Part shown: in pieces, positions 3,262 through 37,087 of the stretch
How the letters are laid out: every line of letters begins with the position of its first letter
How positions within the stretch are numbered: the first letter of the stretch is position 1
NCBI GenBank assembly: GCA_030639665.1
Contig: DAOWCC010000001.1
Coordinates: forward strand, 1-42,609
Direction of reading: 5' to 3'
Source: Elusimicrobiota bacterium
GTDB lineage: Bacteria; Elusimicrobiota; Elusimicrobia; Elusimicrobiales; UBA9959
DNA length: 42,609 bases
Program-made: the position numbers and the translations under genes
The notes under the pieces: generated by a model
What the model saw: the letters and a program-made list of their open reading frames with translations, nothing else
The model's database searches: none
Told to the model about the DNA's origin: nothing

Positions 3262-4095
3262 ATGCCAGTGAAATCGTTTAAAGCGTATACACCATCAAGA
3301 AGAACAATAACCGTCAGTGATTTTTCGGATATTACGAGAACCACCCCTGAAAAAAGCCTTATGGTAGGGCTTAAAAAAAAGGGCGGAAGAAATAATACCG
3401 GCAGAATCATGGTTAGGCATCATGGCGGCGGACATAAAAGAAGCTATAGAATAATAGATTTCAAAAGAAACAAAATAGGCGTTCCCGCGAAAGTGTTTTC
3501 TATAGAATATGATCCCAATAGGAGCGCCAGAATCGCTCTCCTTCACTATGTGGACGGAGAAAAAAGATATATCATTGCTCCCAATGGTTTGAAAGTCGGA
3601 GAGATGCTTAATAGCGGCCCCGAAGCGGATATTAAAGTCGGAAACGCTTTACCGCTTTCCTCCATTCCTGAGGGTACTTTCATACACGCTATAGAAATGC
3701 AGCCCGGAAGAGGCGCTCAGTTCGCGCGTTCAGCCGGTACGCAGTCTCAGCTTATGGCTAAAGAAGGCAAATACGCCACAATCAAGATGCCTTCTGGCGA
3801 AGTGCGAAAGGTTTTGAAAAAATGTTCCGCCACTATCGGTCAAGTGGGAAATACAGAGCATAATACAATAACCATAGGAAATGCCGGAAGAAACAGACAT
3901 AGAGGCATAAGACCTACCGTTAGAGGCACAGCTATGAACGCCTGCGACCATCCTTTGGGCGGCGGCAGAGGCCGTTCAAAAGGTAATAATGTTCCAAGAT
4001 CACCTTGGAATCAGCCTTCAAAAGGTTTTAAAACAAGAAATCCGAGCAAGATTTGGGGTTGGATGATTGTTCAGGATAGAAGAAAGAAGAAATAA
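3262..4095 (+). CDS. rplB: 50S ribosomal protein L2
   Basis: [14 protein letters not shown]..., [31 protein letters not shown] lies upstream of ATG 3262. Confidence 0.96.
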
Positions 4096-28692: not shown

Positions 28693-28881
28693 ATGAAAAG
28701 AAAAGCATTGGTTAAACATCTTATGCAGCAAGGCTGCAAACTTTTAAGAGAAGGCGGCAAATACTCCATTTTTGTTAACGCCACCGCGGAAAAAGAAGTT
28801 CCCGTGACCAGACATACGGAAATTGCCGATTTTACCGCAAGGAAAATATGCAAAGACTTAGGCGTAGATCCCGCCAGATAA
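28693..28881 (+). CDS. hicA: HicA-like (YcfA) small protein, orphan; the predicted catalytic His position is occupied by Tyr
   Basis: 62 aa. ALVKHLMQQGCKLLREGGKYSIFVN...VPVTRHTEIADFTARKICKDLGV aligns to the HicA pattern ELIKxLxxxGxxxxRxxGSHxxY...VPxHxxxxLxxGTLxxIxKQxGL. No HicB-like ORF on either side. Confidence 0.6.
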   Translation: MKRKALVKHLMQQGCKLLREGGKYSIFVNATAEKEVPVTRHTEIADFTARKICKDLGVDPAR

Positions 28882-29147
28882 CCATATCACCCGCGCAGGC
28901 GGTGAAAGCGACTCCGGAAATTATTGTGGAGCGTATATCGCCGCGAACGGGCGGAGGGATAAATCCGCCAAGCGCCTTTCGTCCCAATAATAATTTAAGG
29001 GAGCTTTATCGGCAGGTTTCAACCTCTGAATCTTCGGTGGATTTATTAAGCAATAAAGGAAAGAGTCCAAGCGATAGCGGCGAAAAAACAGCAGCTTCGT
29101 TATCTCAAGAGGGGGGCAGGGTGACTTTGTTTCAATTTCGTAAGAGA

Positions 29148-29525
29148 ATGAAATTTTTTTTGGTTTTAGTGTCTTTCATGTTTCTTTCTTCTTGCGCGAG
29201 TAAAATGAGTCTCATTCAAACGGGTCCGTGGAGCGGTGGGCGCGATGTGAAGGATATTAAGCATTTCGCAAGCAGAAATCAAATCAAAGAGTCTTGGATT
29301 GCCATAGCTGTCATTCGCGGCGATAAAGTTAATCCGTCCGATAGAAAAAAAATAAACAAAGAGATTGAAAGAGCGAAACAAATGTCCGCCGATATAGGCG
29401 CCGACGGCGTGGTATTGGTGGAAAAAAGGGTTACCAAGAACACTGCCCGTTTTTCTAAAGATATCGGGAAGGTTTTTATAACCGGTATCGCGATACAATA
29501 TGTTACCGAAGAACAAACAAAATAA
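29148..29525 (+). CDS. small lipoprotein, unknown function
   Basis: MKFFLVLVSFMFLSSC lipobox. An in-frame GTG at 29121 behind agaggggggcagg is an alternative start. The 100 codons upstream in the track ORF look non-coding. Confidence 0.6.
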   Translation: MKFFLVLVSFMFLSSCASKMSLIQTGPWSGGRDVKDIKHFASRNQIKESWIAIAVIRGDKVNPSDRKKINKEIERAKQMSADIGADGVVLVEKRVTKNTARFSKDIGKVFITGIAIQYVTEEQTK

Positions 29526-30225
29526 AACCGATAATTTTTTTGTTAAAGTCGCTTATGAGACCGATGAAATTCGGAAGTGGACGGGAAGAATTATTGTCGT
29601 GGACTTATTCAGGTTCTCAAACACCGTTTGCGCTCTTATACTAAGCGGAAGAAAAAGCATAAAAATATATTCAGAGCCCAAACTGGCCATTGCCGCCAAA
29701 AAAATCAAAAAAAACACGGATTTGTTTTCAGAAATAGATTTTCCTTTCATTGAGAGATATGACAATTCTCCCCATCTTGCCATGAATTCTTTAGATGCGT
29801 CTAAAGATGCCGTTATAGTAACCCGTTCAGGTTCGAAAACGGTTATGGCCTCTGAAGGAGCCAAAGAAATAATTATAGGCTGTTTTGCCAATATGCCGCA
29901 AATTTGCGAATACGCTTCACAAAATAAAATTGATACTCTAATAGCGCCCGCTTGCCTTTTTTATAATAGAAATCATGTGGAAGATTTTATATGCGCTCGT
30001 TCCATGGATGACGCGCTTAATGGAAAAGATACTTTTGATGAGGCTTGTGAAGAAATACATAAAACATCCAGAATTATAGACCTTATCGCTTTAAGGCCTG
30101 AAACCGGAAGAAAAGATATTGAAATGATATTAAAAAAAGGAACAATGAAGGTTTTACCCAAGGCTGTTATAAAGGGAGTTTTTGCCGAAGTTTTTGATAT
30201 TTCGAATGGGCTTAAGGGAGAGTGA
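29500..30225 (+). CDS. divergent 2-phosphosulfolactate phosphatase (ComB) family protein
   Basis: IIVVDLFRFSNTV, YDNSP, VTRSGSKTV, GCFANMPQI and VEDFICA line up with the ComB-family blocks VIDVLRASTTI / GNSP / TTNGT / N..A / EDxxCAG as I recall them. Confidence 0.45.
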   Translation: MLPKNKQNKTDNFFVKVAYETDEIRKWTGRIIVVDLFRFSNTVCALILSGRKSIKIYSEPKLAIAAKKIKKNTDLFSEIDFPFIERYDNSPHLAMNSLDASKDAVIVTRSGSKTVMASEGAKEIIIGCFANMPQICEYASQNKIDTLIAPACLFYNRNHVEDFICARSMDDALNGKDTFDEACEEIHKTSRIIDLIALRPETGRKDIEMILKKGTMKVLPKAVIKGVFAEVFDISNGLKGE

Positions 30226-30226
30226 A

Positions 30227-30910
30227 ATGAATCATAAGAAAAAAGCGGTGATTATGTTTTCGGGCGGTCTTGATTCCACCGCGGCTTTGTGTTGGGCCTT
30301 GGATAAAGGTTATGAATGTTTTGCCGTAACCATTTCATATGGACAGAAGCATATTAAAGAGAAAAAAAGCGCTCAACGCATAGCCAAATTATTGGGTGTT
30401 AAATTATTTGATTTAAAACTGGATTTGCCTTGGCTTAAAAGCAGCTCTTTGGTTGATAAAAATAAAAAAATTCCCAGTTTTAAAGTTTCTGAAATAAATG
30501 GTAAAAAAATTCCGTCCACTTATGTGCCGGGCAGGAATCTGATGTTTACTTCCATAGGTGTTTCTTTGGCTGATTCCATTAAAGCCGAAGCGGTTGTTTT
30601 AGGTCCCAATATAGTGGATTATTCCGGCTATCCCGATTGCCGCCCCGTGTTTTATAATGCTTTGGAAAAGGCCGTTAATTACGGCACGGAAGCGGGAAGT
30701 TCGGGCGGTAAAATAAAATTGCTTATGCCATTGATAAAAATGAGCAAGGCGGACATTATAAAGCTTTCAATCAAATTAAAAGCGCCGCTCAAATATACCT
30801 GGTCCTGCTATTCGGGTTTAAAAAAGCCTTGCGGTGATTGTGATTCCTGCAAGCTTCGAGCGAAAGGTTTTGCCGAGGCCGGCATTAAGGATCCCGCGTT
30901 AATAAAATGA
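30227..30910 (+). CDS. queC: 7-cyano-7-deazaguanine synthase
   Basis: AVIMFSGGLDST; C-terminal Zn cluster CYSGLKKPCGDCDSCKLR. Confidence 0.93.
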   Translation: MNHKKKAVIMFSGGLDSTAALCWALDKGYECFAVTISYGQKHIKEKKSAQRIAKLLGVKLFDLKLDLPWLKSSSLVDKNKKIPSFKVSEINGKKIPSTYVPGRNLMFTSIGVSLADSIKAEAVVLGPNIVDYSGYPDCRPVFYNALEKAVNYGTEAGSSGGKIKLLMPLIKMSKADIIKLSIKLKAPLKYTWSCYSGLKKPCGDCDSCKLRAKGFAEAGIKDPALIK

Positions 30911-31600
30911 TTAAGGCCAAGATAAGTGAAATATTTTGTTCAATTCAGGGCGAGGGCTTATATCTCGGTCAAAAACAGATTTTCGTAAGATTTGCGGGTT
31001 GTAATCTTGATTGCGACTATTGCGATGAATCCAAAGCGAAAGATGGTGAAAAATTTTCTCTGCAATCACCGGAAGAAGTTGTTGAAAAAATAAAATTATT
31101 CAAAAAAAAAAGAAAATCCCGAGGCTGTCTCTTTAACCGGCGGGGAGCCTTTATTGCAAATGGCTTTCATAGAAAAACTTTTGCCTTTGATTAAAAAAAC
31201 AGGACTTCAAATTCATTTGGAAACAAATGCCGTTTTATTTAAGGAGTTTGAAAAGATAGCTGAAATGGCAGATGTGATTGCCGCTGATATAAAGCTTCCG
31301 AGCGCTACCGGAAAATCCCTTTGGACTGAGCATGAAGAATTTCTGCGCTTAGCGCCTGAAAAAATTTTTGTTAAAATTGTCGTTACTTCAAAAACAAAGC
31401 TTGATGAAATTCAAAAAGCTTTTGAGATGATAAATAAAATTTCTCCTAAAATGCCGGTTTTTATTCAGCCCGTTACGGAAAGTGGAGTTGTAAAAAAACC
31501 CGGAAAAGAGTTTTTTGACAGAATTGAGAAAATTTCTTTAAATATGAAAATGAAGTATAAAATTTTGCCGCAACAGCATCCCATCTGGGGAATAAGATAA
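30907..31600 (+). CDS. queE: 7-carboxy-7-deazaguanine synthase (radical SAM), interrupted by a frameshift in an A10 run (31102-31111)
   Basis: EIFCSIQGEGLYLGQKQIFVRFAGCNLDCDYCD in frame 0. AVSLTGGEPLLQ...HLETNA continues in frame +1. With A9 the two join as ...KLFKKKENPEAVSLTGGEP. Confidence 0.88.
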
Positions 31601-31706: not shown

Positions 31707-32012
31707 ATGAGTGAAGAAACTTTTTTGATTGATTGTCCTTTATGTGAAGCCAGGATTGAAGTGGAAAGAAAAACAGGCAAGGTCGTAAAGCATTGGGCGA
31801 AACCTAAATTGAAAAAAGGGGAAGACCCTTTTAAAAAGGCTCTTGAAGGAATTAAGGCGAATGAAAATAAGCTGGATGATTATTTTTCAGGGGCGCAGAA
31901 TTCTATGGAAGATAAAAAGAAAGAGCTTCTGGATAAATTTGAAAAAGAGAAAAAGAGAATTAAAGATTCGGGAGATACTTCAAAGCCCATTAATCCTATG
32001 GATTTAGATTAG
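31707..32012 (+). CDS. small hypothetical protein with one CxxC knuckle and a Lys/Glu-rich tail
   Basis: GGAGG upstream; DCPLCEARIEVERKTGKVV; no family recognised. Confidence 0.55.
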   Translation: MSEETFLIDCPLCEARIEVERKTGKVVKHWAKPKLKKGEDPFKKALEGIKANENKLDDYFSGAQNSMEDKKKELLDKFEKEKKRIKDSGDTSKPINPMDLD

Positions 32013-32195
32013 TAAGCGTTTATTGAGTTAATAGAGTGGACTACGCTATCATGTCGTGAGTTGGCAGGACACCCATAAGCGCTCAAGTTAATGGCGTTTG
32101 TAGCGTAGTTAAGGAGTATAAGGGAGTCTGTTTCTGATATTTACACAATAAACTCTAAAAACGCTGAACGCAATGAACGCTTTATATTTTAACTA

Positions 32196-32226
32196 AGGAC
32201 CTATTTCCGTATGGGTCCTTTTTTCT
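32196..32226 (+). terminator. Intrinsic terminator-like hairpin plus T-run upstream of PLD paralog 1
   Basis: aggaccta (32196-32203) / tgggtcct (32212-32219), 8 bp including one G-U, followed by a T-run. Confidence 0.6.
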
Positions 32227-32283
32227 TATTTTTATGCCTTTATGACTCTTATAACAATGGGACTTTATGTATAAAATGTAGAT

Positions 32284-33945
32284 ATGATAAATAACAAAAA
32301 TTCACTTATCAAAACTTTTTTCTTATTTCTCATCATATTTCAGTTAGTCGCGGTTCAATCCGCTATTGCCCTTGGCGAAAATGAAATAACCGCCAATTAT
32401 AAAGAAAAAATAATAAACACATCCCACGCGCTCGGCATTGGCGTTTATGAAGATTTTCCGGTTGAATTTGCCGGAGAAGATAATGTTTTAAAAAATATGG
32501 ATATTGTTTATTCTAAAACCACCGCTTTTGGAAAGGCGCAAGATATTACAATTCCCGCGCCCAAGAGAATCGTTCCCGAAAGAACTTTTACGGATGAAGT
32601 TGAAGGTTATTGGGGTTATGCCACCACTCTCTATTATATTTTTAAAACCAAAATCGCGGATTCAGGTATTCTTCCGTGGAAAGACGGAGCGCCTTCTTTT
32701 GAGGAATCATCCCGAAAAGCTATCGCCAGGGTAAAAAATTCCGATTTTCCGTCCAGAAAGGCAGGGCAGACTTCTTTGCTTAAAAATGAAGGTTTCTTAA
32801 AAGAAATGGAATCTCTTTCAGGCGCCAAATTTACCGATGGCAATACCTCCGAATTTCTTATAGACGGAAAAGCTTCTTTTGGCATGAAGGATAAGCTTAT
32901 AAAAGAAGCCAAGAAAAGCATATATATAGCAAGCTATTCTTTTCATGATGATATTACGGGTTATGAAACATCGGATATGCTTATAGCCCAGAAAAAAAAG
33001 GGTATTGATATTAAAATAATAGTGGATCATAAGGTGGTTAATATCTCGGGGAGAATTGTCAAACGCATGCAGAAAGCCGGCATAGAAGTTATCCGTTATA
33101 TAGATTCAAAAAGAACCGGAGATTATTGGCATGTTAAATTATTGATGGTGGATGATAAATACGCCATAGTCGGCGGCATGAATTACGCGGATTATTATTC
33201 TCATAAAAATCCCGATACCCCCCAATGGCGCGATACCGATGTTCTTTATACCGGGCCCGCCGTGATGGAATCTAGAAAAATATTCGCCGGAATTTGGAAT
33301 GGCCTGATTAAAGAAAAAAAGCTCTCTTTCGACAGCATGGATGAAAATATTAATTCCAATGAGGCCAGTGGCGGCTCGGCCCGCATAGCGGTAATGTATT
33401 GGAATCCGCCTTTAGGTTCTCCCACGATACTTTTAAGCATTATTAAAGCGATTTACGGAGCCACCGAACGCATTAATATCGAAAATCCTTATTATGTCGC
33501 GGTGCCGGCCATAACTCAAGCCGTATTGGATGCCAAGGCGCGCGGCGTGGAAGTTAATATTTTAACCAATTCTAAGAAAAGCATAGATCGCGACGGCAAG
33601 CCTATGGCTGATGTTATAATCAAGGGCCTGATTCCTTTAGTTTCTTCCGGCATAAATGTGTATTTAAAAAAAGGCGATACTCTTCATAGTAAATTTATGA
33701 CCATAGACGGAGTTTATTGTAATATCGGTTCGTATAATTTTCATCCCAGAAGTGAAAGATACGATACGGAAATGAATATCAGCATAATAGACCCGGCATC
33801 TGTTAAACAGCTTAATGAGGTGTTTGAGGAAGATTTGGCTGAGGCCATTAAAATAAACACTGTGGAAGATTTGGAATATGAGCCCGGCTGGCTGGCTAAA
33901 ATGATGGAAAAATATTTTTACGCTGAACTTTCACGGAAGAAATAA
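32284..33945 (+). CDS. secreted or membrane-anchored phospholipase D superfamily protein, two HKD motifs (paralog 1)
   Basis: N-terminal hydrophobic signal FFLFLIIFQLVAVQSAIA; HVKLLMVD...GGMN and HSKFMTID...GSYN. Confidence 0.85.
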   Translation: MINNKNSLIKTFFLFLIIFQLVAVQSAIALGENEITANYKEKIINTSHALGIGVYEDFPVEFAGEDNVLKNMDIVYSKTTAFGKAQDITIPAPKRIVPERTFTDEVEGYWGYATTLYYIFKTKIADSGILPWKDGAPSFEESSRKAIARVKNSDFPSRKAGQTSLLKNEGFLKEMESLSGAKFTDGNTSEFLIDGKASFGMKDKLIKEAKKSIYIASYSFHDDITGYETSDMLIAQKKKGIDIKIIVDHKVVNISGRIVKRMQKAGIEVIRYIDSKRTGDYWHVKLLMVDDKYAIVGGMNYADYYSHKNPDTPQWRDTDVLYTGPAVMESRKIFAGIWNGLIKEKKLSFDSMDENINSNEASGGSARIAVMYWNPPLGSPTILLSIIKAIYGATERINIENPYYVAVPAITQAVLDAKARGVEVNILTNSKKSIDRDGKPMADVIIKGLIPLVSSGINVYLKKGDTLHSKFMTIDGVYCNIGSYNFHPRSERYDTEMNISIIDPASVKQLNEVFEEDLAEAIKINTVEDLEYEPGWLAKMMEKYFYAELSRKK

Positions 33946-33985
33946 GTTTGGATAGTAGATATAAATATTTAAAGGAGTCTTTAAT

Positions 33986-35023
33986 ATGAAAAAATATCTG
34001 ATAATTTCAATTTTAATTTTGTTGGCGCAAGGAAGTTACGCGCAAAACGCTGAATTTTTAAAATTATCGTCCAATATTAAATCCATAGATATCGGCTCAT
34101 TGCAGGATAAAGCGGAAATGCCGTTATTGGCGTCCCTCGCGTCAATCAAAGAAGAAAATTCAGTGCCCGTCAATGATTTGGAATTTTCCAAAGAATATGT
34201 TTTACAACAGATTATGGCTGAAACTTGGGATCTAGTGGAAAATATCGATTCAATTATACTGTTTCCCAAAAAAATAATGGGTGACGCGCGTTTATACATT
34301 TTAACGCGATTTTTTGAAGAGACCTATAATTATTCTTTAGTAAATAAAAGTGCCGGCGCGTCAGTTGACAGGCTCGCGCTTATTAACGCCATATGGGCTT
34401 TAGGTGAATTGGGTAATTCCGCGTCCGTAAAAACCATAATTAAGGCTTTTCCTTCAGCCGATCAGACAATGCGTTTAAATATGATGGCGGCCCTCGGTAA
34501 AATAAAATCGCCGCAAGCATCCAAAGAACTGAATAAAATAATGATTGACGGCGGAAATGAAGAAATGAGTTTCATTGAAGCGGGAGATATTGTGTTTCGC
34601 AAAGGTTATTTCGGTTTGCTTAATCCGATAGTTAAAGCGCAATCGGTTGGACATGTCGCTGTTTATGTGGGCATGGAAAACGGCGAGCCAATGGTTATAG
34701 AGGCATGGACATCCATGAGAAAAGCTTCATTGCGCAAGTATATAGGTAATTGGCCTTTTTATGGGAATTACACTACATATCCCAAACCGACTATGGAGCA
34801 AAGAAATAAAATAGTCGATTATGCGACCGCCCAACTGGGAAAACCTTTTTCTATCCTGCATTTAAGTCAAAAAGGCAGTGAAAAATTTGATTGCGTGGGT
34901 TTGGCGGAGGCCGCTTATGAAGCGGCGGGTTTAAATCCCACTCCCGATGAACTCGAAATTGGCTGGGGCTGGCCGCTTACTCCCACCGAGCAATATGAGA
35001 ATGTTTTTCCAAATTTTAAATAA
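33986..35023 (+). CDS. secreted HEAT-repeat protein with a C-terminal permuted papain-like (NlpC/P60 clan, C92 YiiX/YaeF-like) domain
   Basis: Signal MKKYLIISILILLAQGSYA. HEAT-like AIWALGELGNSASVKTIIKAF...MMAALGKIKSPQASKEL. GDIVFRKG...GHVAVYVG...VIEAW...FDCVGLAEAAYEAAGL places His before Cys, the permuted order. Confidence 0.65.
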   Translation: MKKYLIISILILLAQGSYAQNAEFLKLSSNIKSIDIGSLQDKAEMPLLASLASIKEENSVPVNDLEFSKEYVLQQIMAETWDLVENIDSIILFPKKIMGDARLYILTRFFEETYNYSLVNKSAGASVDRLALINAIWALGELGNSASVKTIIKAFPSADQTMRLNMMAALGKIKSPQASKELNKIMIDGGNEEMSFIEAGDIVFRKGYFGLLNPIVKAQSVGHVAVYVGMENGEPMVIEAWTSMRKASLRKYIGNWPFYGNYTTYPKPTMEQRNKIVDYATAQLGKPFSILHLSQKGSEKFDCVGLAEAAYEAAGLNPTPDELEIGWGWPLTPTEQYENVFPNFK

Positions 35024-35169
35024 TTAAAATTTGTTTTCCGATTGTTCGTCAATTTATAATGGCGACAAGTCTCTGGCCTATAACCTAATTTAGGCCTTAT
35101 AGTCCTAAAAAAGTTATGTTGTTAAAGGTTGTTTTTTACTTGTAACCTGTGACCTAATTTAGGTCTTAT

Positions 35170-35200
35170 GGACCTAAATTTATATAGGTCCTTTTTTTTT
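35170..35200 (+). terminator. Intrinsic terminator-like hairpin plus T9 upstream of PLD paralog 2
   Basis: ggaccta-aatttata-taggtcc followed by ttttttttt. Homologous to 32196-32226. Two related hairpins lie upstream (35075-35105 and about 35146-35170). Confidence 0.6.
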
Positions 35201-35256
35201 GTTTTCATGCCTTTTTATCCCTTACGATAATTGTGTTTTATCCGTACACTATGGAT

Positions 35257-36921
35257 ATGATAAATAACAAAAATTCAATTATTAAAACTCTTTTCTTATT
35301 CCTTATTATATTTCAGTTAGTCGCGTTTCAATCCGCTATTGCTCTCGGCGAAAATGAAATAACCGCCGATTATAAAGAAAAAATAATAAACACATCCCAA
35401 GCGCTGGGTATCGGCGTTTATGAAGATTTTCCCGTTGAATTTGCCGGCGAGAATGATGCCACAAAAGATGCAAAGCTCGTTTATGCGAATCCTTCAGATA
35501 ATAGAGTAATAAGAGAAATTGTTCCCACCCTTGTCGATATGAATAAGAGCGGAGACACTTTTGAAGTTGGGTTTTGGGATCAAGCCGCGGTTATGTGGCA
35601 TAATGCCGGTTTTATCGCCACTTTTATCGGTTCTCAAATCGTTGATAGCGGATTCCTGCCCTGGGTTGACGCGGCTCCCACATTTGAAGATATTTCCGAT
35701 AGGGCCATTAAAACCGTTAAAAACAGCAAATACAAACATGGCAAAAAAGGCGTATCCTTATTTGAGAATGAAGGTTTTATAAAGGAATTGGAAGATATTT
35801 CGGGAGCGAAATTCGCGGGCGGTAATTCCACCGATTATTTAATAGACGGTCCGGAATCTTTTGCCATGAAAAATAAATTAATGAGTGGCGCCAAGAAAAG
35901 CATTTATGTCGCCAGCTGGGCTTTATATGATGATATTACCGGCAAAGAAGCTGTGGATTTGCTTATATCCAAACACAAAGAGGGACTTGATATAAAGGTT
36001 ATAGTGGATAAGAAAGTTGTAGGCATACATGGCGCTGTGGTAATAGGAATGTTGGAAGATGCCGGTATAGAAGTTCTCAGATATCAGGAGAAAGGAAGAA
36101 GCGCGGATGTCTGGCATATCAAGATGATAATAATAGATGATGAATATGCCATAGTGGGCGGCATGAACTTCGGTAATGTTTATTCTCATAGGGGAGGCGG
36201 ACCCAAATGGCGCGATACTGAAATTTTATATAGCGGCCCCGCTCTAGCCGATTCGATAAAAATTTTTGAAGATACTTGGAACGCGAAAATTAAAGAGGAT
36301 AAACTTTCTCTGACTTTCATGAAACCTTTCGCGGGTTCCATTGCGCCAAAGGGGGATGTGAGAATAGCTCCCGTAGTTCAGAATCCTCCCACAGATTCCA
36401 AAGTATTGTTAAGTATGCTTAAAGGAATTTACGGCGCGGGCAAAACGGTTAATATAGAGAACGCTTATTTTGTCGCTGTTCCCGCCATTACCGTGGCTGT
36501 TCTTGACGCTCTTGATAGAGGTGTTGAAGTTAATATATTGACAAATTCCGATAAGACCTTAAACGAGCAATGCAGGTCAATGTCGGTTCCTTTGCTAAAA
36601 AGCTTAGCTGTTCTTTTAAAATCAGGCGCCAATATCTATCTTAAGCAAGGCGATACCGTGCATAGCAAGTTTATGACCGTTGACGGAATATTCGCGAATA
36701 TAGGTTCTTATAATCTTCACCCCAGAGGCGAAAGATATGACACTGAACTTAATGTTAATGTCATAGGCTCTTCGGGCGTGCGAGAATTGGATGAGGCTTT
36801 TCAAAATGATATATCCAAAGCAAAAAAGATTTTAACGGTTGAAGAGCTTGGAATAAAGGATACATGGCTTTCAAGAATAATAGAAAATTATTTCCTGGCT
36901 CAGCTTAAACAGGGAAAATAA
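35257..36921 (+). CDS. secreted or membrane-anchored phospholipase D superfamily protein, two HKD motifs (paralog 2)
   Basis: Start chosen by homology to paralog 1 (MINNKNS...). HIKMIIID...GGMN and HSKFMTVD...GSYN. Confidence 0.85.
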   Translation: MINNKNSIIKTLFLFLIIFQLVAFQSAIALGENEITADYKEKIINTSQALGIGVYEDFPVEFAGENDATKDAKLVYANPSDNRVIREIVPTLVDMNKSGDTFEVGFWDQAAVMWHNAGFIATFIGSQIVDSGFLPWVDAAPTFEDISDRAIKTVKNSKYKHGKKGVSLFENEGFIKELEDISGAKFAGGNSTDYLIDGPESFAMKNKLMSGAKKSIYVASWALYDDITGKEAVDLLISKHKEGLDIKVIVDKKVVGIHGAVVIGMLEDAGIEVLRYQEKGRSADVWHIKMIIIDDEYAIVGGMNFGNVYSHRGGGPKWRDTEILYSGPALADSIKIFEDTWNAKIKEDKLSLTFMKPFAGSIAPKGDVRIAPVVQNPPTDSKVLLSMLKGIYGAGKTVNIENAYFVAVPAITVAVLDALDRGVEVNILTNSDKTLNEQCRSMSVPLLKSLAVLLKSGANIYLKQGDTVHSKFMTVDGIFANIGSYNLHPRGERYDTELNVNVIGSSGVRELDEAFQNDISKAKKILTVEELGIKDTWLSRIIENYFLAQLKQGK

Positions 36922-36965: not shown

Positions 36966-37008
36966 CCCCCACACATAGAGCATAAAGTATGTGTGGGGGT
37001 ATTTTTTT
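36966..37008 (+). terminator. Strong intrinsic terminator after PLD paralog 2
   Basis: cccccacacata (36966-36977) / tatgtgtggggg (36988-36999), a perfect 12-bp stem with a 10-nt loop, then tattttttt. Confidence 0.85.
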
Positions 37009-37013
37009 GTTTC

Positions 37014-37048
37014 TCTAAACTCTAAATTCTAAATTCTAAACTCTGAAC
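37014..37048 (+). repeat. Tandem heptamer TCT(A/G)AA(C/T) x5
   Basis: tctaaac, tctaaat, tctaaat, tctaaac, tctgaac. Confidence 0.75.
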
Positions 37049-37087
37049 TTTTTGTTTCTGTGGCAATATTCCCTTAAAAAACATAAA

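Follow-up and report, generated by a model that had tools for sequence, protein, structure and literature searches.

Do two genes for exported HKD enzymes and the gene for a permuted NlpC/P60 protein between them form one conserved unit, and on what would their products act? This question is raised by a locus of an Elusimicrobiota bacterium (UBA9959; GCA_030639665.1, contig DAOWCC010000001.1), of which positions 1 to 42,609 were analysed; this whole stretch of 42,609 nucleotides is called the window here. A preliminary description of the DNA had seen in it an insulated three-gene module. In our analysis the conserved unit is an operon of PLD1 and C92, present in and restricted to the Elusimicrobiota, and not the three-gene module.

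Layout of the locus and export of its products

The three genes are intact and all lie on the + strand (Table 1). As had been described, the outer two encode paralogs of about 553 aa with two complete HKD motifs each (confirmed by Pfam and alignment), and the middle one joins HEAT repeats to a permuted NlpC/P60 domain. The overall identity of PLD1 and PLD2 is 53%. The ATG aligning with that of PLD1 was taken as the start of PLD2; alternative starts are GTG at 35233 and ATG at 35251. A hairpin upstream of each PLD gene and the strong closing terminator were likewise found again. T1 closes the queC-queE-101aa unit and also opens a block that is common to the upstream region of PLD2, and T3 ends the PLD2 transcription unit. 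The spacer between PLD1 and C92 contains an SD-like motif, and a scan of it for terminators found none, indicating that these two genes are probably cotranscribed. Mobile-element genes around the three genes and a base-composition shift across them were not detected; their GC content is that of the flanks.

Table 1. Coordinates of genes, regulatory elements and catalytic motifs in the window
Feature	Position	Strand	Remarks
T1, terminator-like hairpin and T-run	32195-32230	+	stem 10 bp, 4 GC pairs; hairpin proper 32195-32220
Homogenised 5' block, copy 1	32195-32478	+	T1 hairpin, putative promoter, 5'UTR, signal peptide, first ~64 codons of PLD1
PLD1	32284-33945	+	553 aa; exported two-lobed HKD enzyme, cardiolipin-synthase-like branch, C92-linked PLD clade
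PLD1, HKD motif HVKLLMVD	33130-33153	+	residue 283
PLD1, HKD motif HSKFMTID	33685-33708	+	residue 468
PLD1-C92 spacer	33946-33985	+	40 nt, SD-like AAAGGAG
HEAT-C92	33986-35023	+	345 aa; exported, HEAT repeats and circularly permuted NlpC/P60 (YiiX/C92-like)
HEAT region	about 34379-34552	+	
C92 catalytic domain	about 34577-35020	+	
C92 His223 (GHVAVYVG)	34652-34654	+	precedes Cys303
C92 Cys303 (FDCVG)	34892-34894	+	
C92 C-terminal motif GLNPTPD..GWGWPLTPxEQY	34928-34996	+	conserved
T2, terminator-like hairpin and T9 run	35170-35200	+	after C92; homologous to T1; hairpin proper 35170-35191
Homogenised 5' block, copy 2	35170-35451	+	T2 hairpin, putative promoter, 5'UTR, signal peptide, first ~64 codons of PLD2
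PLD2	35257-36921	+	554 aa; exported two-lobed HKD paralog, other PLD clade than PLD1
PLD2, HKD motif HIKMIIID	36115-36138	+	residue 287
PLD2, HKD motif HSKFMTVD	36661-36684	+	residue 469
T3, strong intrinsic terminator	36966-37008	+	11-bp GC-rich stem CCCCCACACAT...ATGTGTGGGGG, then T-run

All three proteins begin with Sec-type signal peptides whose n-regions are rich in K and whose ends resemble AxA (SAIA before LG in the PLDs, SYA before QN in C92). Whether they are cleaved or stay on as an N-terminal anchor was decided by eye and with a hydrophobicity script. The export signals, which had been claimed for the three products, turned out to be a family-wide property: 79 of 83 C92 homologs and 104 of 117 PLD homologs carry one, those without it being truncated gene calls. 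A lipobox was not found in PLD1, PLD2 or C92, and their signals are taken to be of the non-lipoprotein kind.

Conservation of the PLD1-C92 operon

The PLD1-C92 pair recurs in at least ten contigs, co-directional and with the PLD gene directly upstream (the window, L080, L081, L082, L001/L009, L003/L004, L008, L021, L091 and L092). The gap between the two genes, 40 nt in the window, ranges from -4 to +29 nt in the homologous pairs, and the flanks of the pair are unrelated from locus to locus. Every C92-adjacent PLD of other Elusimicrobiota belongs to one clade, which includes PLD1. Since the adjacency recurs with different flanks and joins one PLD clade to one C92 clade, PLD1-C92 is a co-inherited operon and not a chance neighbourhood. 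The pairwise identities of paired PLD and C92 proteins correlate (r = 0.71), to which the shared species phylogeny contributes too. The linkage is frequent but not obligatory: C92 genes of the short clade also occur without an adjacent PLD (L005, L007, L010, L011, L027 and the P0020 contig), and in the long C92 clade the link to PLDs is loose, these lying on the opposite strand, 1-8 kb off, inside a block that is syntenic anyway. Both families are restricted to the phylum, with sharp boundaries and a vertical distribution. Many genomes have at least two C92 paralogs, as seen from assemblies that recur among the homologs (e.g. JAUSCK, JAVHLJ, CAIQNV).

PLD2 belongs to a separate clade. Its orthologs fill the slot in queE-101aa-[PLD]-hpt-ftsH, alone or beside another PLD and without C92 (L083, L084/85; the P0020 contig has a single PLD in the slot), and the layout PLD-C92-PLD was found only in relatives at 85-95% identity. 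Thus the co-conservation expected for the whole module holds for PLD1 and C92, whereas the orthologs of PLD2 stand without C92. The notion of an insulated accessory unit has to be divided in the same way: PLD1-C92 looks like a relocatable cassette, and PLD2 is a resident syntenic gene.

The 5' ends of the two PLD genes tell of a further event. Over about 290 nt they have been homogenised by gene conversion, as judged from a synonymous-site identity in this block that far exceeds that of the remaining gene. The two blocks are 90-93% identical in nucleotides; third-position identity between PLD1 and PLD2 is 0.80-0.83 in codons 1-60 and 0.17-0.57 in the remaining gene, and identical amino acids are encoded by identical codons in 47 of 58 cases in the block, compared with 112 of 232 elsewhere. 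In consequence PLD1 and PLD2 are probably under common regulation and have their N-terminal segment in common. A possible course of events is that in this lineage the PLD1-C92 cassette arrived directly ahead of the resident PLD2 and that gene conversion then evened out the 5' ends. PLD2 itself lies outside the cassette: throughout the phylum an exported PLD occupies the position from queE-101aa to hpt-ftsH, and PLD2 is its ortholog here.

Catalytic domains of the PLD and C92 proteins

Each PLD was matched twice by PLDc_2 (1.2e-40 and 1.7e-34, Pfam), and the HKD motif residues of both are invariant in a family alignment of 43 sequences. The variable N-terminal domain of about 190 aa described before was resolved into four parts: residues 1-30 are the signal peptide, 34-50 form a first conserved helix, a variable and disordered linker spans about 50-94, and 102-127 form a second conserved helix, which is aromatic. 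The catalytic core is confidently modelled from near residue 140. Among the NCBIfam models those of cardiolipin synthases are closest, yet the scores stay far under the curated thresholds (139 against 290 bits; 97 against 281). Identity to ClsA, ClsB and ClsC is merely 20-24%, at roughly equal distance from all three. Because of the low scores and the low identity the PLDs could be hydrolytic enzymes instead of synthases. The modelled fold of PLD1 matches PssA, the namesake enzymes PLD1/2 and Streptomyces PLD (about 1e-20, Foldseek), and no Nuc-type enzyme was among its top matches. The predicted fold is thus that of the lipid-acting HKD enzymes and not of a nuclease.

The middle protein was matched by Peptidase_C92 (1.7e-11, 44.9 bits against a cut-off of 27) and by HEAT_2 (28.9 against 27.7; both Pfam). 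The claim of an intact dyad with His before Cys holds: His223 and Cys303 are invariant across 35 diverse homologs, and so are H292, K296 and D302 near the Cys. The best structural match of the C92 domain is YiiX (2if6, probability 1.0), to which the protein is about 17% identical, followed by PLAAT3/HRASLS3; the likeness to PLAAT-type structures (7zom, 7c3z, 4dot) is weak but recurrent, with Foldseek E-values of 0.3-0.4. In YiiX a hydrophobic S1 pocket binds fatty acid (PMC3142127), and permuted NlpC/P60 enzymes are phospholipases or acyltransferases (PMC12994826, PMC7387801). With the fold matches of both proteins, the lipid-directed role that had been put forward for the locus is the best-supported reading.

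A possible role in the cell envelope and related systems

In our view it is an even call that PLD1 and C92 are an extracytoplasmic pair remodelling head groups and acyl chains of the cell's own envelope phospholipids. From signals, folds and synteny we infer the localisation, the substrates, the direction of the reaction and a coupling, be it physical or functional. Both proteins would leave via Sec, with cleavable non-lipoprotein signals, to the periplasm or outer-membrane compartment of a diderm cell. There PLD1 could act as an HKD transphosphatidylase that swaps or condenses phospholipid head groups, e.g. PG/PE to cardiolipin or a related product. C92 would be a thiol acyl-hydrolase or acyl-transferase (Cys303/His223), which takes up the acyl chain of a fatty-acyl ester or amide as an acyl-enzyme before freeing or transferring it, and its HEAT repeats may serve as a protein-docking arm. 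Jointly they would remodel the envelope glycerophospholipids outside the cytoplasm.

The same enzymes could also be secreted for degradation or offence, attacking membranes of host, prey or competitors or scavenging phosphate, head groups or fatty acids from environmental phospholipids. The signal peptides of all three proteins and the existence of several PLD paralogs whose disordered linkers vary would fit this, as would the fact that PLD plus PLA-type pairs are typical among secreted lipases and toxins; Tox-Act1 and TseH are permuted NlpC/P60 toxins with phospholipase activity (PMC12994826), and ClsO homologs were once taken for secreted lipases (PMC12846801). We nevertheless consider it unlikely. 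The toxin/effector set that had been offered as the alternative found no positive support: the locus has no immunity-like small gene, no T6SS, T5SS, Rhs or polymorphic-toxin context or other secretion-system genes, and neither a mobile-element signature nor a composition shift, and the PADLOC matches are weak and concern only generic HKD. Both families are vertically distributed inside one phylum, and the PLD2 slot is syntenic phylum-wide beside hpt-ftsH-cdaA, which suggests a housekeeping role.

Alternatively, HEAT-C92 could be the phylum's lipoprotein N-acyltransferase or remodeller, like LnsA or Lnb/DUF4105, with a phospholipid as acyl donor and a PLD that merely supplies or clears the (lyso-)phospholipid pool. 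Two independent permuted NlpC/P60 lineages N-acylate lipoproteins outside the cytoplasm (PMC7387801; for Lnb as cited in PMC12994826), YiiX was proposed by Xu et al. to be a fatty-acyl-peptide amidase (PMC3142127), and the C92 protein carries an export signal and is confined to the phylum. Yet the presence of at least two C92 paralogs in many genomes and the tight, clade-specific PLD operon would be unexpected for an Lnt analogue, and an LnsB-like CPBP partner was not found adjoining C92, so that this assignment seems quite improbable. Canonical Lnt had no match in the 1.06 Mb of sampled loci, which speaks neither for nor against its presence in these genomes. No more probable is a neighbourhood devoid of functional coupling, in which the PLDs are the phylum's exported cardiolipin-synthase-type enzymes, C92 has an unrelated function, and the genes are neighbours by chance or because envelope functions are regulated together. 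PLD2-clade and other PLDs do exist without C92, as do several C92 genes without a PLD, and general synteny with housekeeping genes can account for the proximity in the long clade. Against an uncoupled neighbourhood stand the overlapping or abutting frames of one PLD clade and one C92 clade in at least ten contigs with different flanks.

The proposed remodelling of own lipids by PLD1 and C92 has parallels among known systems. The C92 protein shares with YiiX/YaeF (Peptidase_C92, 2if6) the circularly permuted NlpC/P60 fold in which His precedes Cys; unlike YiiX it has a HEAT-repeat domain fused on the N-terminal side as well as a signal peptide, and its family has an invariant GLNPTPD..GWGWPLTPxEQY motif of its own, plus H292, K296 and D302. 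LnsA (S. aureus) and Lnb/DUF4105 (Bacteroides), lipoprotein N-acyltransferases of permuted NlpC/P60 fold, are exported as well and transfer fatty-acyl groups outside the cytoplasm (PMC7387801, PMC12994826). At the sequence level the C92 protein is a member of neither, and whereas LnsA pairs with LnsB (CPBP family), C92 pairs with a PLD. PLAAT/HRASLS/LRAT proteins, Tox-Act1 and TseH are permuted NlpC/P60 thiol phospholipases A1/2 or acyltransferases acting on PG, PE and PC (PMC12994826); in contrast to these, the C92 protein lacks a C-terminal membrane anchor, and nothing in its gene neighbourhood points to a toxin, an immunity function or a T6SS. In lysosomal BMP synthesis the HKD transphosphatidylases PLD3/PLD4 and CLN5, a papain-like/NlpC-P60-related cysteine transacylase, act in one non-cytoplasmic compartment on the same PG-derived lipids (PMC12055030, PMC11568333, PMC9012467). 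This system is eukaryotic, and its likeness to PLD1-C92, compared at the level of superfamilies, as well as any tie of Elusimicrobiota to BMP, is analogy only.

PLD1 and PLD2 share the dual-HKD catalytic core with E. coli ClsA, ClsB and ClsC. Where ClsA has two transmembrane helices, the PLDs have their signal peptide, followed by a conserved helix and the disordered linker. Immediately next to E. coli clsC lies its partner gene ymdB, which Tan et al. reportedly found in 2012 to raise ClsC activity; this partner is a macrodomain, that of PLD1 a cysteine acyl enzyme. Similar in setting is ClsO, a cardiolipin synthase exposed on the surface of the outer membrane in Acinetobacter baumannii and other Proteobacteria (PMC12846801). 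It differs from the Elusimicrobiota enzymes in phylum, and no partner acyl enzyme is described for it. ClsO is ClsC-like, whereas PLD1 and PLD2 stand at much the same distance from ClsA, ClsB and ClsC; its defining mark is a lipoprotein signal with a lipobox Cys, in contrast to their SPase-I-type signals without Cys. Like PLD1 and PLD2, however, ClsO is a two-HKD, Cls-like protein with an export signal, and it works on envelope glycerophospholipids outside the cytoplasm (PMC12846801). Such extracytoplasmic remodelling of envelope lipids, in which PLD1 and C92 may take part, is a process that has been recognised in bacteria only recently.

PLD and HEAT-C92 proteins with export signals

The window has a GC content of ~39% and carries nearly all of its genes on the plus strand. 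Three intact open reading frames lie where the preliminary description had placed them, two coding for PLD proteins and one for a protein joining HEAT repeats to a C92 domain (HEAT-C92, or C92 for short). Alternative starts of PLD2 are possible at GTG 35233 and ATG 35251.

Open reading frames of the PLD1, HEAT-C92 and PLD2 genes
Feature	Position	Strand	Length	Remark
PLD1	32284-33945	+	553 aa	
HEAT-C92	33986-35023	+	345 aa	
PLD2	35257-36921	+	554 aa	counted from the ATG aligned with that of PLD1

The domain content proposed there was confirmed with Pfam: PLDc_2 matched each PLD protein twice (1e-40 and 1e-34), and in the middle protein Peptidase_C92 (1.7e-11) and HEAT_2 both exceeded the gathering score. 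All three proteins indeed begin with an N-terminal signal whose K-rich n-region and hydrophobic core are followed by an AxA-like end. This type of N-terminus was also present in 79 of 83 C92 homologs and 104 of 117 PLD homologs, the exceptions being truncated gene calls. For the PLDs the signal peptide predicts export, and the outer membrane or cell surface, where ClsO is located, would be one possible destination. The hairpins with T-runs 5' of both PLD genes and the strong terminator at 36966-37008 are also real. Right after this terminator, 5' of hpt, a 7-nt tandem repeat (CTCTAAA, 5.3 copies) occupies 37013-37049.

Each PLD protein contains the two expected exact HxKxxxxD motifs (PLD1 at 283 and 468, PLD2 at 287 and 469), which are invariant in an alignment of 43 family members. 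The two-domain, lipid-acting type of the PLD/HKD superfamily has two HxKxxxxD(x6)G(S/G)xN motifs per chain and a single active site; motifs, the double PLDc_2 match and a two-lobed model all assign the proteins to it. The PLD1 model (pLDDT 82) begins with the signal helix and a short conserved helix (34-50). A disordered linker (50-94) leads to a long aromatic helix (102-127), and the core (140-545), modelled with confidence, has two lobes. Foldseek related it to PssA, human PLD1/2 and Streptomyces PLD at about 1e-20. Its best 50 matches were all lipid enzymes, with no Nuc-type enzyme among them, and profile-to-PDB searches agreed with this result. Enzymes of the Nuc/NucT type have a single HKD domain (~155-180 aa) and form homodimers, whereas here two HKD domains are found in one chain; NucT models reached at most 41 bits (cut-offs 211-297). 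With lipid enzymes as neighbours in fold and profile, the models make a nuclease role unlikely. A role in defence (DISARM DrmC, Mokosh) was rejected. The DrmC model scored 50 bits against a cut-off of 133, PADLOC matches stayed at or below 45 bits and covered half-domains only, and the neighbouring genes are queC/queE, hpt and ftsH; DrmC would also require DrmA, DrmB and a methylase alongside.

The closest NCBIfam models are cardiolipin synthases, enzymes that make cardiolipin from PG+PG or PG+PE; the scores stay far under the cut-offs: 139 and 118 bits for ClsA (TIGR04265; cut-off 290), 97 and 83 bits for ClsB (NF008427; cut-off 281). Together with an identity of 20-24% to E. coli ClsA, ClsB and ClsC, none of which was a clear favourite, this argues from sequence that the PLDs are a distinct exported family within the Cls-like branch. 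The N-terminal pair of transmembrane helices by which ClsA is anchored in the inner membrane is not present; PLD1 has one signal-type helix (5-28), and the alignment to the ClsA model begins at model position 72. The lipobox Cys that characterizes ClsO was not found in the signal region of PLD1 or PLD2. In another Elusimicrobiota sub-clade, 29 PLD homologs (P0136-P0204) begin with MTNKKLALxxLVSC, in which LVSC resembles a lipobox. Judging by this sequence they may be lipoproteins, and so closer analogues of ClsO than the PLDs of the window.

The circularly permuted order of the C92 catalytic residues holds on proper alignment. His223 (GHVAVYVG) precedes Cys303 (FDCVG), and since both are invariant in 35 diverse homologs the permuted dyad survives. 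H292, K296 and D302, which precede Cys303, and a C-terminal motif (GLNPTPD..GWGWPLTPxEQY) are likewise invariant in the family; no invariant Tyr corresponding to the YiiX-type signature was identified near Cys303 in the alignment. Scores were 44.9 bits for Peptidase_C92 (YaeF-YiiX; threshold 27) and 28.9 for HEAT_2 (threshold 27.7), and the HEAT half matched alphaRep/HEAT proteins at 1e-27 in profile searches. In the model (pLDDT 80, pTM 0.79) HEAT-like helices (69-194) pack on an alpha/beta catalytic domain (202-345). Its best Foldseek match was E. coli YiiX (2if6; E = 3e-4, probability 1.0, TM-score normalised to target 0.60), followed by PLAAT3/HRASLS3. The similarity to LRAT/PLAAT is weak (E = 0.3-0.4); the protein has no LRAT Pfam match and no C-terminal membrane anchor, but ends in the soluble conserved motif. 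The C92 domain is a bona fide member of Peptidase_C92, and its fusion to HEAT repeats is new. In the C92 profile search, scores fell from 235 bits to a 60-bit match covering HEAT only, and no relatives outside Elusimicrobiota were retrieved. As the profile recovers only its own family, HEAT+C92 is sharply bounded and restricted to the phylum. All homologs of both families come from Elusimicrobiota MAGs. The HEAT+C92 family splits into a short clade (284-345 aa), including the protein of the window, and a long clade (400-450 aa).

The PLD1-C92 pair and the resident position of PLD2

PLD genes near C92 were scored in 73 genome loci and, in addition, in metagenomic contigs. A co-directional PLD gene lies directly 5' of a short-clade C92 gene in the window and in the related loci L080, L081, L082, L001/L009, L003/L004, L008, L021, L091 and L092. 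The gaps range from -4 to +40 nt, with a 4-nt stop/start overlap in three loci, and the genes on the flanks of one locus are unrelated to those of another (SBP_bac_5 and FIST-cyclase; HisKA and response regulators; Trans_reg_C; HAMP-cyclase; DUF481). In a neighbour-joining tree of the catalytic region, PLD1 and all of the C92-adjacent PLDs form one clade. Pairwise identities of paired PLD and C92 proteins correlate (r = 0.71), to which species phylogeny contributes. In the window, the 40-nt spacer between PLD1 and C92 contains AAAGGAG, and no terminator was found in it. This recurrent, clade-specific adjacency and the terminator-free spacer with its SD-like sequence argue, at the level of sequence, that PLD1 and C92 form an operon and that the conserved unit comprises two genes, not three. 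Of the three-gene module suggested previously, the PLD1-C92 pair thus stands, being co-conserved in different flanks, whereas PLD2 belongs to another clade and has its own slot. Not every short-clade C92 gene is linked in this way; several (L005, L007, L010, L011, L027) have no adjacent PLD.

Proximity of PLD to long-clade C92 genes was down-weighted as evidence of an operon because the PLD is encoded on the other strand and housekeeping genes (fumarase, frd/sdh, RtcB, ThiC/ThiE) lie in between. Directly upstream of long-clade HEAT-C92 (loci L012-L075, e.g. L058:104-1219 and L029:13961-15034), a transmembrane-anchored calcineurin-like metallophosphoesterase (PF00149) is encoded in 29 loci. Another family (f11; ~357 aa, exported or membrane, without Pfam match) adjoins PLD in at least 10 loci, and its gene lies directly upstream of C92 in L005. 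Both could be additional partners in this lipid system.

PLD2 falls into a clade separate from that of PLD1 (with P0100, P0103, P0139, P0189, P0197, P0105 and P0117) and is the resident gene of a slot between queE and hpt-ftsH. Other PLDs of its clade occupy this slot too, the gene order being PLD-hpt-ftsH-cdaA in L083 and queC-queE-101aa-PLD-PLD-...-hpt-ftsH in L084/85. On the contig carrying the homolog P0020 it is queE-101aa-PLD-hpt-ftsH-cdaA, with the C92 gene 5 kb off; there the slot PLD (P0118) belongs to a third clade. The PLD1-C92-PLD2 layout was found in close relatives only: in L080, which is ~93% identical; probably in L081, where the contig ends after C92; and in L086, where the 3' end of C92 precedes a PLD2 of 85% identity. 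The simplest history is that a PLD1-C92 cassette was inserted 5' of a resident PLD. A recent tandem duplication of PLD1 was rejected as the origin of PLD2, as the clades are separate and, except in the 5' block, synonymous sites have reached saturation. That the entire locus is a mobile island or was acquired horizontally was rejected too: ORFs for an integrase or a transposase were not present in the window, and no tRNA or composition shift was found at the locus. The contexts of PLD1-C92 nonetheless differ between genomes.

In the relatives, the contigs are discontinuous at a common point of C92 (window ~34899-34953, the most conserved motif). L080 has an N-gap (3507-3606), a scaffold gap and not a real break of the gene; L081 has a C-terminal frameshift (3643-3771); and L086 (1-413) matches the window only from the final 97 nt of C92 onward. 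These discontinuities likely reflect assembly trouble at a motif common to C92 paralogs.

Shared 5' block of the PLD genes and neighbouring sequences

Overall, PLD1 and PLD2 are 53% identical, but at the DNA level they reach 90-93% identity in the stretch that runs from the hairpin to codon ~64. Third-position identity is 0.80-0.83 in this block vs 0.17-0.57 elsewhere, and identical amino acids use identical codons in 47 of 58 cases, compared with 112 of 232 in the rest. This pattern is that of a gene-conversion tract, which takes in the terminator, the promoter and 5'UTR, the signal peptide and the conserved helix near the N-terminus, and by which the regulation of both genes has probably been kept identical. 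As a feature of the family, the N-terminal motif DYKEKIxNT.KALG..VYEDFP recurs in several PLD clades, so that conversion holds a functional segment identical in both paralogs. The locus is a clean case of segmental conversion acting on two old paralogs, whose regulatory and N-terminal parts have stayed identical through it.

A riboswitch or another RNA element upstream of PLD1 was rejected: Rfam gave no match to the 270-nt leader or anywhere else in the window, and the leader 5' of the hairpin is unlike that of L081, similarity returning only at the T-run. In the C92-PLD2 spacer (35075-35175), a ~25-nt element, ACCTAATTTAGGyCTTATrGwCC, is directly repeated once, and its second copy overlaps the terminator-like hairpin.

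Upstream of the locus, queE (7-carboxy-7-deazaguanine synthase, radical SAM; 30907-31600) is broken into two ORFs, 30907-31194 and 31154-31600. When L084, whose QueE is intact, was compared by tblastn, the match left frame 1 and continued in frame 2 at a point between about 31086 and 31106; the cause is either a frameshift, possibly in a pseudogene, or an error of sequencing. A 101-aa CxxC protein without Pfam match (31707-32012) is encoded between queE and the PLD slot and keeps this place in the window, L080 (98% identity), L081 (88%), L084/85 (62%) and the P0020 contig; it could be associated with either queE or the PLD locus. The region 5' of queC (28848-30225) codes for a 225-aa protein with an internal lipoprotein-like signal and no Pfam match, and for a 2-phosphosulfolactate-phosphatase-like protein (PF04029). 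The order PF04029-queC-queE recurs in L084/85.

Possible functions and known systems

YiiX was co-crystallised with a fatty acid and has a hydrophobic S1 pocket, and permuted NlpC/P60 enzymes have been proposed to be lipid-specific (PMC3142127). Cardiolipin synthesis of the PLD type is possible at the outer membrane, as ClsO shows (PMC12846801). This literature, the operon structure and dual export make remodelling of the cell's own envelope phospholipids outside the cytoplasm the most likely function, with about even chances of being correct. Anatomy, fold class, export signals and synteny are observed, and substrates, direction of catalysis and coupling are inferred: the head groups of phospholipids would be the target of PLD1 and the acyl chains that of C92, and PLD2 would be a resident paralog under shared regulation.

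Alternatively, the proteins could be secreted degradative or offensive enzymes, the latter close to the exported toxin/effector set considered in the preliminary description; PG and PE are cleaved by Tox-Act1 and TseH (PMC12994826). This seems unlikely, as the genes lack an immunity, secretion-system or mobile context and the PLD2 slot is syntenic. Adjacent immunity genes and secretion-system or toxin-trafficking genes were absent from the window and related loci, and a polymorphic toxin or T6SS lipase effector pair was rejected for this reason. C92 could also be a lipoprotein N-acyltransferase, for which the exported permuted NlpC/P60 enzymes LnsA and Lnb set a precedent (PMC7387801, PMC12994826). 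However, there are several C92 paralogs per genome and the gene is in an operon with PLD, which makes this quite improbable. No LnsB-like neighbour of C92 was seen at the loci examined; Lnt had no match in 1.06 Mb of sampled loci, a sample uninformative on Lnt status. That PLD and C92 are not functionally coupled at all is decidedly doubtful, since in at least 10 differing contexts the two genes adjoin with abutting frames and in a clade-specific manner.

Envelope remodelling could go as far as a physical complex of PLD1 and HEAT-C92 in the periplasm or at the outer membrane, in which coupled transphosphatidylation and transacylation would yield a non-canonical envelope lipid, but we regard this as rather improbable. 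The HEAT arm would dock the N-terminal helix carrying the DYKEKI motif, identical in both PLDs through gene conversion, and BMP-like or acyl-PG species, N-acyl-PE or acyl-remodelled cardiolipin would be candidate products. Such a complex would represent a bacterial pathway convergent with lysosomal PLD3/4 and CLN5, and would bring lipid synthesis beyond the inner membrane, the ClsO idea, to a second phylum and a second chemistry.

Before the ClsO paper appeared in 2026, the inner membrane was, to our knowledge, regarded as the only site of bacterial glycerophospholipid synthesis. Here families of exported enzymes resembling cardiolipin synthases are encoded by a whole phylum that branches deeply and is mostly uncultivated, and one exported PLD clade is genetically tied to an exported cysteine enzyme of the fatty-acyl type. 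The cassette, which comes from an uncultivated lineage, bears on whether lipids are also made beyond the inner membrane, a question opened only lately. If the pair remodels envelope lipids outside the cytoplasm, the ClsO principle would gain in phylogenetic breadth and in chemistry, the latter then extending to both head groups and acyl chains. Lipoprotein acylation and toxins aside, a YiiX-like enzyme of bacteria would also receive its first functional context, in a compact, directly testable two-gene cassette. We found no paper on an operon of PLD and permuted NlpC/P60 genes or on these Elusimicrobiota families.

Among known systems, LnsA needs LnsB as its partner, whereas the neighbour of C92 is a PLD. 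A Cls gene with a directly abutting partner exists in E. coli, where clsC adjoins ymdB. The pairing is also like that of lysosomal PLD3/4 and CLN5 in BMP synthesis, as an analogy only (PMC12055030, PMC9012467). From ClsA and ClsB the PLDs are set apart by sub-threshold scores and the missing transmembrane pair. They differ from ClsO in having no lipobox, yet may work alike.
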